DNA of 41,157 nucleotides, from positions 1 through 41,157 of the IMG/VR virus record IMGVR_UViG_2648501336_000006, one strand, 5' to 3'. A program made the position numbers and the translations under genes. The notes beneath the pieces are model-generated. The model was not told the DNA's origin. It did not search any database and saw only the letters and a program-made list of their open reading frames with translations. Positions 5,482-10,584 of the stretch are shown piece by piece. Source of the stretch: a virus (taxonomy: Duplodnaviria; Heunggongvirae; Uroviricota; Caudoviricetes). Positions within the stretch are counted from its first letter, which is position 1. Each line of letters starts with the position of its first letter.

Positions 5482-5775
5482 TCAGTCATTACTGATAGCG
5501 CCATAGCGTGAGCGGTAATTACGCAGGCGCGGGTCAATTTCAGGGAAGTGGGTATATGTGGCTTTGCGGAATGGTCGGATTGATGTCTGGTAAATTCGCT
5601 CGCGTTCTTCTTTCTCTGCAAGCCATATACAGTGGCGAAATTCCTTTTCCTCTTTCGTTTCCTGTGGTAGCGACATTATCCGATCGTAGTTTCTTCTGAA
5701 TTTATCCAGCACCTCCGATACGGAATTGCCGGAACAGCGGCGCGCGTCATCCGCACCATACAGAGGCGCTGGCAT
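5482..5775 (-). CDS. Hypothetical early protein (97 aa)
   Basis: ATG start with AGGAGA SD 6 nt upstream. Confidence 0.6.
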   Translation of the reverse strand: MPAPLYGADDARRCSGNSVSEVLDKFRRNYDRIMSLPQETKEEKEFRHCIWLAEKEERERIYQTSIRPFRKATYTHFPEIDPRLRNYRSRYGAISND

Positions 5776-5791: not shown

Positions 5792-6340
5792 TTATTTAGC
5801 TAACTTTTTCCAGATCGCTGAAACGTATTTGGCTTGGTGAATGGCATCATCAAGCGCGTTGTGGCGAGTTCCTTTGAATGGCATATCTCGCTTAGGGTCG
5901 AATCCTATTACCTTCCCAAGTTCGACGATTGTTCTTACGTCGCGGTCATTCCACCACTGCCACGGAACTGGCTGCCCTGTCAGCGAATAACTGTTGCGGA
6001 GAATAACGCAGTCAAATGATGCTCCATTCCCCCAAACCTGAACGAATTTGTGGTTAGCGTTCTTTATGATGAATTCAGATAACCATGAAAGAGCCGTTGA
6101 AAGCTCCTGAGTGTTGCTGGTTAGCGATTTTCTGGCTTCTTCACTCTGTTCCAGCCACCATAAAATCGTTGAAGCGTCAGGACGCGCCCGATATCGCATT
6201 GATGACTCAAGCGAGATATTTACCGAGAACTCTTCTCCTGTTTCTCCGGTATTCGGGTCAAAGAATACTGCCCCAATAGAAATAACTGGCGCGTATGGCC
6301 CGTTGCCCATTGTTTCAAGGTCAACCATCAAGTGATTCAT
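5792..6340 (-). CDS. DnaQ-like (DEDDh) 3'-5' exonuclease, 182 aa
   Basis: Exo motifs visible: DLET (Exo I), GASFD (Exo II), HNALDDA (Exo III); ATG start with AAGGA SD. Confidence 0.75.
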   Translation of the reverse strand: MNHLMVDLETMGNGPYAPVISIGAVFFDPNTGETGEEFSVNISLESSMRYRARPDASTILWWLEQSEEARKSLTSNTQELSTALSWLSEFIIKNANHKFVQVWGNGASFDCVILRNSYSLTGQPVPWQWWNDRDVRTIVELGKVIGFDPKRDMPFKGTRHNALDDAIHQAKYVSAIWKKLAK

Positions 6341-6348
6341 GTAAGTCC

Positions 6349-6855
6349 TTAAATTGCGTGAATAGCGTGACGAGGGAAGGGGAGAGTTACTGGTGCAAAG
6401 GGTATATCGTCGTCAAAATCCATCGGAGGTTCGTTGTGTTGTGCTGGTGATGATTGCTGCTGTGGCTTCTGTGATTGCCTGCTGGCTGCTTGTTGTTTGC
6501 TGTCGCCAATGCCGCCAAGCATTTGCATCACGCCATTAATTCCGACATGAACCTCGGTTGTGTAACGGTCTTGTCCTGACTGGTCTTTCCACTTTCTGGT
6601 TCTCAGCATTCCCTCGAAATAAATCTGATCACCTTTTTTCACATACTGCCCCACGACCTCAGCCAGTTTCCCGGATACAGCAACACGATGCCATTCAGTC
6701 AATTCCTTTTGCTCGCCAGTATTTTTATCTCGCCATTGTTCTGACGTGGCTATTGTCAGGTTAGCGAACGCTGTTCCTGATGGTGAGTATCGAACTTCCG
6801 GGTCTTGTCCTACCCGACCAAGGATAATCACCTTATTTACGCCTCTGCTTGCCAT
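6349..6855 (-). CDS. ssb: Single-stranded DNA-binding protein SSB with 15-aa extension beyond the DDDIPF tip
   Basis: OB-fold region closely resembles E. coli SSB ([27 protein letters not shown]...); contains [10 protein letters not shown] followed by [15 protein letters not shown] before the stop. Confidence 0.9.
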
Positions 6856-7563
6856 TTATGCCGCCTGTTTTAGTTCGTTAACTCTGATGTTCATTACCTG
6901 AACGCATTTAGCCTGCGCATCCTCATTGCCAGCCATTAATTGCCAGTCACGCTGATAACGCTCGATGAGTTTTTTCTTGTCAGTTTCTGTTGATGCATAA
7001 TCGCTGAAGTCTTTCAGGATTTGTTCGCAGTCAACCGATGGAGATTTCTGGTTGGTATTTTCTGGTGATGGTTTGTTATCTGATGCTGGGATTGCCCATA
7101 CCAGCAGCGATGGAGGGAGCCAGTAAAATCCTGTTCCATCCTTCAGTTTTGCCCTGTGCCACCCCTGTTTTTTATCGAGAGATGTTTGTGCGAAACCTTC
7201 CTCAAGGTTATACAGATACCGACCGATTCCCCACTGAACGGCAGCGCGCTTCATTGCACCGGAACGACCACCTTTGACGGCTTCTACCTGCGTGTTTTCA
7301 GCAGCATCCCATTTGGTTACCCATTCGGAATCAATCTTGATTGATATGCCGCATTCAACTCCGCCGTTGTTGGGAATATCGCGGTATTCATTGCGCCATC
7401 CTGCTTTGCCGCAAACATCGTCCAGGCGTTTCATGATTGCCCTGTTCGTGACATAAGCCAGCACCATAGCCCACACCTTGCCATCGCGTGTTTTACCGCT
7501 TTGCTGTATTCGCCATTCGATATCTTCAGGGCTGAATGGCTCATCGAATTTGTTCAAATCCAT
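6856..7563 (-). CDS. Rad52/22-family single-strand annealing protein (recombinase), 235 aa
   Basis: Family assignment from sequence recollection and from position next to ssb in the recombination module; ATG start with GAGGTG SD. Confidence 0.6.
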   Translation of the reverse strand: MDLNKFDEPFSPEDIEWRIQQSGKTRDGKVWAMVLAYVTNRAIMKRLDDVCGKAGWRNEYRDIPNNGGVECGISIKIDSEWVTKWDAAENTQVEAVKGGRSGAMKRAAVQWGIGRYLYNLEEGFAQTSLDKKQGWHRAKLKDGTGFYWLPPSLLVWAIPASDNKPSPENTNQKSPSVDCEQILKDFSDYASTETDKKKLIERYQRDWQLMAGNEDAQAKCVQVMNIRVNELKQAA

Positions 7564-7662
7564 AATTCACCTCAGAATGGACACGGCCCAAGGAAATAAC
7601 GCTGATTTAATACTTCGACTCGGGACAAATTAAGGCATACCCGCATTCCTTCGCGGTCGCCA

Positions 7663-7821
7663 TTATGGCGATACCAGAGAGCTTTCTGCGTGTACATGCG
7701 CCTCTGTAACTTGCTCTCCTTCACTGTGGTTGCAAGTGACATGAATATCTCCTTCGTTGCCGATTAATTCTTTCATCTGACGAATGAATTCTTCGTCTGA
7801 CCAGTTATCTGTAAAACTCAT
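7663..7821 (-). CDS. Small protein in kil position (52 aa from internal ATG)
   Basis: ORF track start is TTG; internal ATG at 7821 overlaps the cIII-like stop (ATGA); call as kil-like is positional only. Confidence 0.4.
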   Translation of the reverse strand: MSFTDNWSDEEFIRQMKELIGNEGDIHVTCNHSEGEQVTEAHVHAESSLVSP

Positions 7822-7988
7822 GGACGGCCTTGTTGTTTCAAAATATCCCAAAGCTTTTCGAGCAAACTTTTCATTCTTGGTTGTTTAAAGTCTGCTCCGG
7901 TTAAAATGTTTTTTCGTGAATGCTGCACCGATAAAATTGGGTTGAAAGGGCGAACCGATGCCGCCCCTGCAATAGCGAACTGTTGCAT
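7818..7988 (-). CDS. cIII: CIII-like protein (FtsH inhibitor family), 56 aa
   Basis: MQQFAIAGAASVRP...LWDILKQQGRP parallels lambda CIII (MQYAIAGWPVAG...LIDILNQPGVP); strong GAAGGAG SD 7 nt upstream of ATG. Confidence 0.7.
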   Translation of the reverse strand: MQQFAIAGAASVRPFNPILSVQHSRKNILTGADFKQPRMKSLLEKLWDILKQQGRP

Positions 7989-8212
7989 AGGATGCTCCTT
8001 CTGTTTGATTGCATAACGAAAATGCCTCAAGTGAAGCGTTATTGGTATGCATATAAAAAGGCCCTCACATCGGAGGGCAAAGAAGATTTCCAATAATCAG
8101 AACAAGTCGGCTCCTGTTTAGTTACGAGCGACATTGCTCCGTGTATTCACTCGTTGGAATGAATACACAGTGCAGTGTTTATTCTGTTGTTTATGCCAAA
8201 AATAAAGGACGA

Positions 8213-8836
8213 TTATGCGACCTCGGAAGGAAGTCCAATCATCTTATTCAAATCTTCTACCCGTAAAGCAGGAAGTGCTGTACTTGCTTTATCTGCTTCT
8301 TTTGGTAGCAACTCTTTGCTTTCAGGCCAAACTTCAATAAGTCGCTTAACTGTTGTGACTGAGTTCAAAGCAGCCCATACATTTGATTCGATATCCTTTT
8401 TCTTGGCTTCAAGTTTTTGTTGCAATGCGCAGATTTCATCAAACCTTTTTGTTATTTCGTGTTCTGCGCTAAACATGCATTTATCTTTGGTCGGAGTAGG
8501 GAGCAATATATCTTCGCCGTTGCCGTCTTTCCCATATGAATACCAGCCAACCCTTCTGCCAGATACAGTCAGATAAATTGAAGTTGAACGGGCATCGCAT
8601 GAGTAAAATGAACATCCCAGCTTTTCAAGTTCTTCGCTTATAGCCATTAACTTGGATGATAACTGATCCACTTCCTCAGTTTTCTTTTTACCGCCAAACA
8701 CAACAACTCTGGCGTCAAGTGCAAGCTGGTTCTTTAACTTTGTTACTTCTTCAAGCTCAGTGAAAACCCCAGATTTAATTAAAGCGTTACGAGCGATTTT
8801 CTCTTTCATACTCGTTGTTAAGCGGATTGATGACAT
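8213..8836 (-). CDS. Hypothetical 207-aa soluble protein in the N-cIII accessory slot
   Basis: ORF track start trimmed to the ATG at 8836 with GAGAGGAA SD; no transmembrane segment; no recognisable domain. Confidence 0.6.
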   Translation of the reverse strand: MSSIRLTTSMKEKIARNALIKSGVFTELEEVTKLKNQLALDARVVVFGGKKKTEEVDQLSSKLMAISEELEKLGCSFYSCDARSTSIYLTVSGRRVGWYSYGKDGNGEDILLPTPTKDKCMFSAEHEITKRFDEICALQQKLEAKKKDIESNVWAALNSVTTVKRLIEVWPESKELLPKEADKASTALPALRVEDLNKMIGLPSEVA

Positions 8837-8950
8837 ATTAATTCCTCTCAAATAAGTGGTTTGCTGCCTAATTTCATTTTCTGGCGACCAACACAAGTCA
8901 CGCCCATTTCACTGCGTGGTTTGCTGTAGTAAATTCGGTTAGTTCAGACA

Positions 8951-8975
8951 ATAAAAAACCCACCGAAGTGGGCTA
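8951..8975 (-). terminator. Intrinsic terminator (tL1-like) downstream of the first gene after N
   Basis: Minus strand CCCAC-TTCG-GTGGG stem-loop followed by TTTTTTATT. Confidence 0.65.
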
Positions 8976-9311
8976 TGACCATTTTTTATTTGGATTTCGT
9001 TGGTGAGCGTGGTTAACAACCCTGTGCATTACATCCTCATATTTTTCATCTTCAATTTTTTCAACATCGCGAGGAAATGGTGTTGCTAATGCTTTGTCAA
9101 CTTTGTCCATTGGGTCTTCATTAATCTTATATTCAGGACCGTCATCTATAGCATTAAAGCCAGGTGTTACACCGTTTTTTAATGCATATGCTATCCTCTT
9201 TTCCCATCTCGCTATTCTCCTCCTGTCTCGAGATGTAAGACCTCTATCAGATACTTTTCTATTTTGTCCGTGGTCGGGATTAACATAAATAGTCTTTTTC
9301 ACCATAAGCAT
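8973..9311 (-). CDS. Hypothetical protein (112 aa) immediately downstream of N
   Basis: ATG at 9311 two nt after the N stop codon; no recognisable domain. Confidence 0.55.
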   Translation of the reverse strand: MLMVKKTIYVNPDHGQNRKVSDRGLTSRDRRRIARWEKRIAYALKNGVTPGFNAIDDGPEYKINEDPMDKVDKALATPFPRDVEKIEDEKYEDVMHRVVNHAHQRNPNKKWS

Positions 9312-9313
9312 AC

Positions 9314-9619
9314 TCAATAAGCACCGTACGGTGGTTTACTGTACAATTTTATTTTTTGGACTGCATGTATTTTGTTTCCTAATGGGTTTGAATCCTTGTA
9401 ATAAATACTTCTATTTTTTCGAACGACTTCTTCTTTCTTCTTGCAGCAAAGGCTTCCTAGTGATGCTGCTTTGTCTGCTCTGACGCAACCAGAGAGCTTT
9501 AGCGCAATTTTTCGCGCCAGTGCTTCATTACTGCGTCGCTCGGCAATAAGTTCTGCTCTGCGAGCTTTGTAGCGGCTTTTTGCCGTACCTTTGGATTCTT
9601 TCCAGACAATGGTTACCAT
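9314..9619 (-). CDS. N: Antitermination protein N, phage-21 type arginine-rich motif (101 aa)
   Basis: N-terminal GTAKSRYKARRAELIAERR matches the phage 21 N boxB-binding peptide as recalled; AAGGAGA SD; lies between pL/nutL and the leftward operon. Confidence 0.85.
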   Translation of the reverse strand: MVTIVWKESKGTAKSRYKARRAELIAERRSNEALARKIALKLSGCVRADKAASLGSLCCKKKEEVVRKNRSIYYKDSNPLGNKIHAVQKIKLYSKPPYGAY

Positions 9620-9728
9620 GATGGTCTCCTTTAAGTGGCTTTGGCGCATGACGCGTCGAGGTGCTTATCTTCTCGATCGCTGTCTTGCAGCTGCAATTCG
9701 CGCCATCCCCAAAACCACTCAAGTTCTG

Positions 9729-9770
9729 GTCTCAACGGTTAGGTTGAGAGTCCGTCGATGTTAAAGAGCC
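9729..9770 (-). promoter_or_regulatory. nutL: nutL: boxA (GCTCTTTAA) and boxB hairpin (CTCAAC-CTAACC-GTTGAG)
   Basis: Read on the minus strand: GGCTCTTTAACATCGACGGACTCTCAACCTAACCGTTGAGACC, immediately upstream of N. Confidence 0.75.
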
Positions 9771-9815
9771 TGCCAATCTGTTCCGTTTGGCTTCCAGCGT
9801 CCTGCTGATGGCTTA

Positions 9816-9844
9816 AATTTAAGACTTCTTAATTTATTGGTCAA
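9816..9844 (-). promoter_or_regulatory. pL promoter with overlapping OL operator (ATTTAAGACTTCTTAATT)
   Basis: Minus-strand TTGACC, 17-bp spacer, TAAATT; 18-bp TTAAGA-type palindrome at 9817-9834 overlaps the -10. Confidence 0.6.
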
Positions 9845-9910
9845 GTGCATTTTTGAAGAAAACTTAATTTTATGGGCGTGAATTTAGTTTGTCTTTGATT
9901 TTTAACGGGA

Positions 9911-9935
9911 AATAAAAAAGGGGCGAAAGCCCCTT
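9911..9935 (-). terminator. Intrinsic terminator after the repressor gene
   Basis: Minus strand GGGGC-TTTC-GCCCC followed by TTTTTTATTT, starting at the c2 stop codon. Confidence 0.7.
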
Positions 9936-10584
9936 AAGGAAGGTTTGCTAGCTTGGCATCAACGACAACGCCAATGATTTTACAGTTCCCATTGATTTCA
10001 ATCATTGGGTATTGTGGATTGAGTGGTTTCAGGAATTTTCTACCGGCATCAATAACTAACTTTTTGAATGTCGCCTCGTTTTCTCCTTCAAGTTTGGCGA
10101 CTACCAGCTTTCCATTACGTGGTTCGACTTCTGGGTCGACGAGAATAATCATCCCCTCAGGAATACTCAGTCCTGCCGGGGCAGTCATTGAGTCGCCTTT
10201 AACATCGAGCCAAAAAGAGTCTTCAGAACAATCTACCGTTGTGTCGTACCAGTTATCTATTGCACGCCTATGATATGGCTCTACAGCTTCCATCCAACAT
10301 CCTGCGCTTACCCAACTAATTAGAGGATACGAACCTCTTGGATCATGCCTGCTGTGATAGGCAATGTTTGAAAGACTATCCTCTCCTTTCAACAGGTAAT
10401 CAGGGGAGCACTGCAAAGCCTTGGCTAAGGCCAATAGGTTTTCGCCATTGGGCTCAGTTTCAGATCGCTCCCATTGGGAAATAGCAACATTAGACACGCC
10501 AACCATCTTGCCAAGGGCAGCCTGCCTAATCTTGAGTTCTTTTCTGCGAGCGCGAATACGCTCACCCATCAGTTGTGTATTCAT
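9934..10584 (-). CDS. c2: P22-type C2 (CI) repressor with LexA-like autocleavage domain, 216 aa
   Basis: Near-identical to P22 C2 as recalled (MNTQLMGERIRARRK...IGVVVDAKLANLP); same length. Confidence 0.95.
   Translation of the reverse strand: MNTQLMGERIRARRKELKIRQAALGKMVGVSNVAISQWERSETEPNGENLLALAKALQCSPDYLLKGEDSLSNIAYHSRHDPRGSYPLISWVSAGCWMEAVEPYHRRAIDNWYDTTVDCSEDSFWLDVKGDSMTAPAGLSIPEGMIILVDPEVEPRNGKLVVAKLEGENEATFKKLVIDAGRKFLKPLNPQYPMIEINGNCKIIGVVVDAKLANLP

Follow-up and report, generated by a model that had tools for sequence, protein, structure and literature searches.

An Nmad5 family protein encoded between the Nun-like and cIII genes of a lambdoid phage: identity, expression and candidate functions

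What does a lambdoid phage gain from an accessory gene placed between its antiterminator gene and cIII? The viral record IMGVR_UViG_2648501336_000006 (Caudoviricetes), analysed here over its whole length of 41,157 nt (the window), carries such a gene at 8213–8836 on the minus strand. An initial annotation, made from the sequence alone, had proposed its 207-residue product as a candidate anti-restriction, exclusion or defence protein. We find that this open reading frame (ORF) is a real gene and that its product is, with near certainty, a full-length, single-domain member of the Nmad5 family (PF18757). The gene is already catalogued; it is a "known unknown", neither an orphan nor a new type of defence gene. 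Its function can be approached only tentatively. Our favoured reading, to which we give about one chance in three, is a dispensable, non-catalytic adaptor whose target would be replicating phage DNA or the machinery of replication, recombination or nucleotide supply.

Family identity, gene model and predicted structure

The protein matches the Pfam Nmad5 profile with 238.1 bits against a cut-off of 27 (E = 1.3e-70), residues 4–203 aligning to profile positions 1–206 of 206. No other Pfam family scores above threshold, and the sole PHROG match is phrog_1965, to which no function is assigned. The initial annotation had found no motif that it could place; the full-length match to PF18757, and the GenBank and RefSeq entries already annotated in this way, overturn that view. 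All motifs of the family are present: the N-terminal RL..I...I..NA..K.G, the GG pair, and the C-terminal T-x-[KR][KR]-L-x3-W-P-E-x2-E-L-L-P ... L-P-x5-L-N-x2-I-G-L-P (motif residues R5, L6, I14, A18, G23, R43, G48, G49, G93, T162, L166, W170, P171, E172, L176, P178, N197, G201 and P203). PF18757 is the only domain in all annotated relatives (110/110), as it is in the 207-residue window protein.

Close relatives are abundant. By tblastn, Kapi1_018 is 100% identical to the window protein; the copies of HK542 and of the Stx1a phages among the matches listed are 92–94% identical, the mEp235 gene is 97% identical at the DNA level, and E. coli prophage copies are found by the hundreds at 92–98% identity. 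The RefSeq Nmad5 annotation occurs in 211 of 5426 complete E. coli genomes (3.9%). Relatives in GenBank and RefSeq are named "Nmad5 family putative nucleotide modification protein". A preprint on OLD names HK542 solely as a phage sensitive to OLD. Kapi1_018, mEp235 gp37 and HK542 gp33 share with the window protein the hidden Markov model match, a single domain of ~200 residues, the motifs and the predicted fold; at the sequence level nothing sets the window protein apart from the family, whose naming association with nucleotide-modification genes is absent from the window. The Nmad domains were reportedly defined by Iyer et al. in 2013. The "NMAD" domain of a validated DefensePredictor defence system is Nmad2 (PF18753), not Nmad5, and was set aside as irrelevant.

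The gene begins at the ATG at 8836, and a Shine-Dalgarno sequence, GAGAGGA (8849–8843), stands 6 nt before it, as the initial annotation had described. A mechanical ORF list extends the same frame to a TTG at 8896, giving 227 residues, and this is the start used for Kapi1_018 in GenBank. All 18 aligned homologues (18/18) start at the MSS/MT position, that is, at the ATG of the shorter reading; because of this agreement, together with GAGAGGA before the ATG, the 207-residue reading is the correct one. The protein has a mass of 23.1 kDa and a pI of 7.6; since it is not acidic, it is not a DNA mimic. It contains no transmembrane helix (highest 19-residue Kyte-Doolittle mean, 0.61), which bears out the initial annotation on this point too.

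Further searches with the window protein returned no NCBIfam match, no PADLOC match at E ≤ 1, and no PDB sequence below E = 0.46 (protein query) or 0.53 (60-sequence profile). The anti-restriction families Ral (PF11058), ArdA, Ocr and phrog_14587 show no similarity to it, and Pfam and PHROG searches revealed no homology to Gam or Abc2. A role as RecBCD inhibitor was dropped, as the window already encodes the anti-RecBCD protein Abc2. Stx phages also carry Gam.

AlphaFold2 with a 60-sequence alignment gave a confident model (predicted local distance difference test, pLDDT, 92.0; predicted template modelling score, 0.83). It comprises N-terminal helices at residues 8–22, 24–47 and 50–72, a small beta region at ~86–122, a long helix at 127–158, and a C-terminal mini-domain at 163–200 with a low-confidence linker at 185–189. 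The long helices 24–72 and 127–158 are predicted to pack as an intramolecular bundle, in which sense the earlier description of a coiled-coil-containing protein is acceptable. A first model (pLDDT 83.7) found no significant match in a PDB fold search, and a Foldseek search of BFVD with it returned 10 matches at E ≤ 0.001 (best E = 2e-12, TM-score up to 0.74), those that carry a name being Nmad5-named or uncharacterised phage proteins. Structure prediction had been suggested as a check on function; it yielded a confident fold, no PDB relative and only such kin. The model thus suggests that the Nmad5 fold is structurally new, with no solved relative.

Conservation was assessed across 60 diverse members. 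Positions conserved in at least 80% are mostly Gly, Pro, Leu and Trp, joined by R5, R43, T162, E172, E175 and N197, and positions 5, 11, 21, 35, 43, 164 and 165 are Lys or Arg in at least 70%. No His, Cys, Asp or Ser is conserved in this set. This pattern suggests a binding protein rather than an enzyme.

Transcription and constraint

Reading leftward from cI, all on the minus strand, the window presents a terminator, a pL-like promoter (TTGACC-17-TAAATT, 9844–9816, from a promoter scan) and a nutL-like site, composed of a boxA-like GCTCTTTAA near 9768–9760 and a boxB-like hairpin (TCTCAAC..GTTGAGA) near 9751–9732. The site is identical to the region annotated Nut boxA in mEp235; the exact lambda boxA CGCTCTTA is absent, and a boxA-like site of P22/mEp235 type stands in its place. 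There follow an N-like antiterminator gene (9314–9619; phrog_271, E = 3.7e-32, with Pfam N_peptide below its cut-off) and a gene for a Nun-like transcription termination factor (8973–9317; phrog_5632, E = 2.4e-70, in line with the mEp235 and mEpX1 annotations). Directly after the Nun-like stop, sequence and a terminator scan place a strong, tL1-like intrinsic terminator, AGCCCACTTCGGTGGGTTTTTTATT (8950–8974). A 120-nt leader, the Nmad5 gene, a hairpin and a second terminator lead to cIII (7818–7988; phrog_550, E = 1e-22), the next downstream gene and the boundary of the slot. The initial annotation had placed the ORF in the N–cIII interval: an accessory slot downstream of N it is, with the correction that the Nun-like gene and a terminator lie between N and the ORF.

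From the upstream terminator (8957) to the start codon (8836), a sigma-70 consensus scan detected nothing promoter-like. With pL, nutL, N and a terminator ahead of it and no promoter-like site of its own, the gene is probably expressed only under N antitermination, in early lytic growth and not in the lysogen.

Such N-dependent, early lytic expression argues against a role in exclusion or defence, which is unlikely. A superinfection-exclusion or anti-phage defence protein expressed by the lysogen would fit a slot that corresponds to the sieB position of lambda, and the gene is flanked by terminators as a moron is; nor does it appear on the list of undetected genes in RNA sequencing of the Kapi1 lysogen. 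That study, however, reports no expression value for the Nmad5 gene, ascribes reads from lytic genes to spontaneous induction and does not flag the gene as highly expressed. Together with the upstream terminator and the lack of an own promoter-like site, of a PADLOC match and of a transmembrane segment, and with the frequent carriage of the family by strictly virulent phages, this makes the exclusion or defence candidate of the initial annotation very improbable.

Selection on the gene was examined in a related set of 80 closely related E. coli prophage loci from IMG/VR. The intact 207-codon frame is kept in 78 of them, and the pairwise ratio of nonsynonymous to synonymous substitution rates is 0.28–0.31; the gene is under constraint. 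It is also dispensable, because it is split by an insertion element in Stx2a phages and because deletion of a Dhillonvirus homologue gives viable phage. In Stx2a-converting phages (e.g. LC616058, at 238–2025 of locus L179) the inserted element interrupts the gene after about residue 33. This insertion accounts for the abundance in databases of a truncated form: the residual 152-residue fragment makes up a large cluster of 232 members. The element itself carries two transposase-like ORFs of 108 and 296 residues and resembles the IS3 family, by eye only.

Family contexts and candidate functions

A profile search of 1.84 billion representatives recovered 2255 clusters (50% identity) at E ≤ 1e-3, and nearly all of the best 150 representatives are 190–220 residues long. 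Phages of Escherichia, Salmonella, Klebsiella, Vibrio, Pseudomonas, Bordetella, Edwardsiella and Sphaerotilus carry the family, to which BFVD adds an alphaproteobacterial phage; N4-like phages, Dhillonviruses and Yuaviruses are strictly virulent carriers.

The surroundings of the gene differ widely among these phages. N4-like phages have the order ThyX or thymidylate synthase (TS), Nmad5, a gp42-like "exonuclease", then primase, Sak4 and SSB, and in 6 of 21 dereplicated diverse loci the gene directly upstream encodes ThyX. The SN1/M6 Yuaviruses place Nmad5 after aGPT-Pplase1 and ahead of a TS-like hydroxymethylase and DNA polymerase, other genes intervening. A Z-genome phage has PolA upstream at some distance and an RNase_T-like exonuclease, PurZ, MazZ and DatZ downstream. 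In eiAU the gene follows a helicase-primase, and in Vibrio phage Athena1 it closely precedes replication protein O. In prophages of Klebsiella, Providencia and Aeromonas it opens the leftward early operon that follows cI; the Providencia prophage combines it with DUF2800, a single-stranded DNA-binding protein and PolA, and in Aeromonas-type prophages it adjoins DUF4406 and orphan Dam, Dcm or MT-A70 methylases. In Dhillonviruses it is the lone opposite-strand gene among head genes. What these contexts share is early expression in the company of genes for the synthesis, copying, recombination or chemical protection of phage DNA. As separate observations, the gp42-like "exonuclease" downstream of Nmad5 has no Pfam match in the N4-like loci L003, L011 and L101–L109, and Nmad5 recurs near an enzyme of the thymidylate synthase family in unrelated phages (N4-like and SN1/M6).

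These neighbourhoods lie behind the family's name, and they raise the alternative that Nmad5 is an enzyme of nucleotide or DNA modification, or its obligatory cofactor, altering bases or the nucleotide pool. Relatives adjoin aGPT-Pplase and TS/hydroxymethylase in SN1/M6, ThyX or TS in N4-like phages, PurZ, DatZ and MazZ, and DNA methylases elsewhere, and both NCBI and Pfam use the corresponding name. That name, however, rests on gene neighbourhood only, and the literature searched held no nucleotide-modifying assay of any Nmad5 member. The protein has neither conserved catalytic-type residues nor a nucleotide-binding motif, and its fold resembles that of no enzyme. The M6/SN1 proteins of Yuaviruses belong to the same family, with similarity to the window protein strongest in residues 121–207, but they are encoded within a thymidine hypermodification cassette (aGPT-Pplase1, TS-like hydroxymethylase, DNA kinase, radical SAM and pyridoxal-phosphate enzymes) that the window does not have. 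The window's pL operon, fully accounted for, contains no gene for a nucleotide- or DNA-modification enzyme; most lambdoid loci likewise have none nearby. Nor does any window ORF of at least 120 residues carry the [DNS]PP[YFW] motif of a DPPY-type amino-methyltransferase partner. A modification enzyme is accordingly an improbable reading of this gene.

The only experimental evidence on the family comes from Dhillonviruses. In SM_S22 and SM_A8, escape from the defence system Tmn maps to one Nmad5 substitution, K296E and K216E respectively; reversion restores Tmn sensitivity, deletion of nmad5 gives viable phage that does not escape Tmn, and the gene could not be cloned, being apparently toxic (Yamashita et al. 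2025, PMC11846954). By alignment, K296 of SM_S22 corresponds to R165 of the window protein, just before the invariant L166 and W170-P171-E172, a position that is Lys or Arg in 11 of 12 aligned sequences and in 70% of the 60 diverse members. The Dhillonvirus proteins (SM_S22 CDS6, SM_A8 CDS7) share with the window protein the C-terminal T-x-[KR][KR]-L-x3-WPE..LLP..LN module and the character of a dispensable accessory, whereas they are only 23% identical to it, bear a large insertion in the beta region, and come from a virulent phage in which the gene stands alone on the opposite strand of the head cluster. In SM_S22 the anti-Tmn gene (ORF35) and nmad5 are not neighbours.

A parallel is offered by T2, in which Tmn is triggered by direct binding of RIIB, described as a replisome component (bioRxiv 10.64898/2026.03.01.708804). 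Like Nmad5, RIIB of T2/T4 is made early and is dispensable, and single substitutions in it determine whether Tmn stops the phage. The two are not homologous, however; RIIB is membrane-associated and its nonsense mutants escape, while Nmad5 escapes by missense only and not by deletion. By analogy, these data are consistent with Nmad5 being another early phage protein engaged by the arms of Tmn, in which case reversal of the charge would make it a ligand that blocks or does not activate.

The favoured adaptor role would assemble these elements as follows. From the N-antiterminated pL transcript, the Nmad5 protein would be made early in lytic growth and would bind replicating phage DNA or a component of replication, recombination or nucleotide supply. 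The binding surface may consist of the conserved basic residues R5, K11, K21, K35, R43 and K164/R165 together with the C-terminal WPE..LLP..LNxxIGLP module, whose basic patch would be the surface that decides, in the Dhillonvirus homologue, whether Tmn stops infection. Nmad5 would then be a dispensable helper of phage DNA metabolism, neither an enzyme nor an immunity gene expressed by the prophage. The link to DNA metabolism is drawn because homologues adjoin ThyX/TS, primase, PolA, replication protein O and helicase-primase, and because the window operon encodes an Erf-like annealase, SSB, an exonuclease and Abc2. The breadth of the family, with its 2255 clusters in many hosts, would suit a target present in every host, for example DNA or the replisome.

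Several points weigh against this assignment. The protein has no recognised DNA-binding or replisome-binding motif. Its lambdoid copies sit in the pL accessory slot beside Ral and anti-restriction genes and not in the pR replication module, and the window is devoid of the nucleotide-metabolism partners found elsewhere. A patchy distribution (3.9% of complete E. coli genomes) and disruption by insertion in Stx2a phages mean that phages would have to do very well without a replication helper of this kind. The correspondence between Tmn-RIIB and Tmn-Nmad5 is an analogy and not a result.

Some of the same facts would suit a dedicated counter-defence protein, which early in infection would bind, neutralise or decoy a host defence protein that is directed at nucleic acids or senses infection. 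Its neighbours in the slot include Ral and the anti-restriction family phrog_14587, Abc2 is encoded in the window operon, and relatives elsewhere lie next to genes of DNA protection (orphan Dam, Dcm and MT-A70, thymidine hypermodification, dZ synthesis). The substitution of Lys by Glu at the R165 equivalent evades Tmn and deletion does not, a gain of function typical of a binder, and a dispensable, patchily distributed gene with no conserved catalytic-type residues is what such a role would predict. Yet the wild-type Dhillonvirus protein gives no protection from Tmn, and no known anti-defence protein or fold resembles Nmad5. So large a family, conserved in length across distant hosts, would also be unusual for a specific inhibitor, and in N4-like phages the gene has a fixed place within the replication module. 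Counter-defence is the main rival of the adaptor reading and somewhat less probable than it. An anti-restriction role in particular is suggested through guilt by association only, with no homology to Ral or to anti-defence proteins, and is neither shown nor excluded.

The cloning failure in Dhillonviruses bears on one further alternative, a Kil-like host-takeover toxin that would stop an essential process of the host, for instance replication or division, for the benefit of lytic growth. Early expression would agree with this, as would the neighbouring kil and cIII genes of many lambdoid and Klebsiella prophages. The apparent toxicity is, however, a single, uncharacterised report on a distant homologue (23% identity; PMC11846954); no cost of deletion has been reported, and conservation over very different hosts would call for a universal target. 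We consider a toxin unlikely.

The accessory slot and its structured flanks

The position of the gene is that of accessory cargo. Of the 80 related loci, 77 have a gene of the N family upstream, which in 51 is the adjoining gene; in nine loci the gene directly upstream is Ral (PF11058). The downstream neighbours vary, comprising three cIII types, DUF2528 and three PHROGs without known function, and in Kapi1 the gene immediately downstream of Nmad5 belongs to phrog_14587, "anti-restriction protein". This variability supports the accessory-cargo slot downstream of N that the initial annotation had proposed. As Ral co-occurs with Nmad5 in these nine loci, the two are not simple alternatives. Lambda Ral and phrog_14587 resemble the window Nmad5 in their N-proximal, pL-driven position and in their accessory, dispensable character, but not in sequence or fold. 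In mEpX1 the N–Nun–cIII frame is shared and two other small genes take the place of Nmad5. The N-like antiterminator of the window (phrog_271), with its Nun-like factor (phrog_5632) directly behind, has the same arrangement as in mEp235 and mEpX1. Nun of HK022 excludes lambda.

The leader of the gene preserves a trace of its earlier surroundings. At 8848–8931 (minus strand) lies the fossil 3' end of a lambda-type N gene, conserved as DNA: translation of 8848–8925 (~26 codons) gives SKPRSEMGVTCVGRQKMKLGSKPLI followed by the stop, an exact match to the C-terminus of the lambda-type N that HK542 encodes intact. The Nmad5 Shine-Dalgarno sequence at 8843–8849, itself conserved in HK542, mEp235 and Kapi1, overlaps the TGA stop of this frame, and the N gene of HK542 extends just up to the ribosome-binding site of Nmad5. 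Because the leader translates to the C-terminus of HK542 N, the Nmad5 module must formerly have stood directly behind a lambda-type N and have been recombined later behind a different N and Nun pair, with the fossil retained. The fossil leader also explains the spurious 227-residue, TTG-start ORF of the Kapi1 record.

On the other side, cIII begins at 7988, 224 bp downstream of the Nmad5 gene; the 120-bp gap of the initial annotation had been measured to a mechanical ORF and overlooked a terminator inside the interval. Folding of the 3' untranslated region identifies a conserved RNA hairpin at 8131–8178 (minus strand; arms 8131–8152 and 8157–8178), with a 14-bp stem that includes two G-U pairs, a 4-nt CAAC loop and extended arms. 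The surrounding 126 nt have a minimum free energy of -37.2 kcal/mol (z = -4.17). The 9-bp inverted repeat that had been noted earlier is real and forms the core of this stem, although it lies at 8141–8168 and not at 8138–8167. A single repeat of this kind is not beyond chance by itself: the window holds 12 perfect 9-bp inverted repeats with loops of 3–20 nt, against 3 ± 2.2 in shuffles. This enrichment extends across the whole window, and many of the hairpins are probably terminators.

The hairpin is identical in HK542, mEp235 and Kapi1; its copies are so nearly identical that no covariation support is obtainable. It is present in 59 of the 80 related loci, and the downstream terminator in 51; both are thus frequent companions of the Nmad5 gene and not obligatory parts. 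An Rfam scan of 7600–9950 found no family for the hairpin and only a sub-threshold match to the ToxT thermometer (28 bits against 81) on the opposite strand, which we read as chance.

The second intrinsic terminator, GCCCTCCGATGTGAGGGC plus CTTTTTAT (8053–8078, minus strand, from a terminator scan), lies between Nmad5 and cIII and marks the downstream mosaic junction of the module. From 8062 rightward the window is 99.9% identical to Kapi1, and leftward the two are unrelated, so that the joint coincides exactly with the 3' side of the terminator stem (8061–8078). In other related loci the break comes directly before the hairpin or directly behind it. Both structured elements, hairpin and terminator, seem to serve as recombination boundaries.

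Two smaller features complete the interval. A 31-residue ORF, MSLVTKQEPTCSDYWKSSLPSDVRAFLYAYQ (8039–8134, minus strand), begins right after the hairpin and crosses the terminator, with GGAG 2 nt from its ATG; its copies are identical and it is probably non-coding. In 18 related loci mechanical ORF calling joins it to a downstream gene for a 322-residue coiled-coil protein (phrog_1376). Over the Nmad5 stop codon, a 5-bp stem followed by TTTATTTTT (8207–8222, minus strand) may form a third, weak terminator at the gene end; it is imperfect in the window and in Kapi1 (GGTCG..CGTCC, with a T-T mismatch) and perfect in HK542 and mEp235 (GGCCG..CGGCC).

Beyond cIII the leftward unit continues, on the minus strand, with two small genes and a recombination module composed of an Erf-like annealase (6856–7563), SSB (6349–6855), an Rv2179c-like 3'-5' exonuclease (5792–6340) and Abc2 (5482–5775; PF11043, E = 1.9e-62), followed by DUF5405, DUF2737, an Ea22-like gene, DUF551, xis and int.

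The gene of the window is in itself an ordinary, catalogued one. Its interest lies in the family to which it belongs, which is large, spans temperate and virulent phages, has a confidently predicted new fold and has no demonstrated function. That function would be most easily studied by genetics in the lambdoid copies of Kapi1, mEp235 and HK542 (E. coli K-12 or MP1 as host), and the correspondence between R165 and K296, taken with the precedent of Tmn and RIIB, makes it directly approachable. As a possible and distinctly tentative view of the whole, the Nmad5 proteins may form a large, structurally new family of early, non-catalytic proteins, not modification proteins, at the interface between the replisome or phage DNA and host immunity, either sensed by that immunity, as RIIB is, or blunting it. 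If this were true, the lambdoid copy would be an N-dependent determinant of immune evasion or immune visibility present in ~4% of E. coli genomes, Stx phages included, and an immune-evasion or immune-sensed factor of this kind would have a bearing on Stx-phage biology and on the engineering of phages for therapy.

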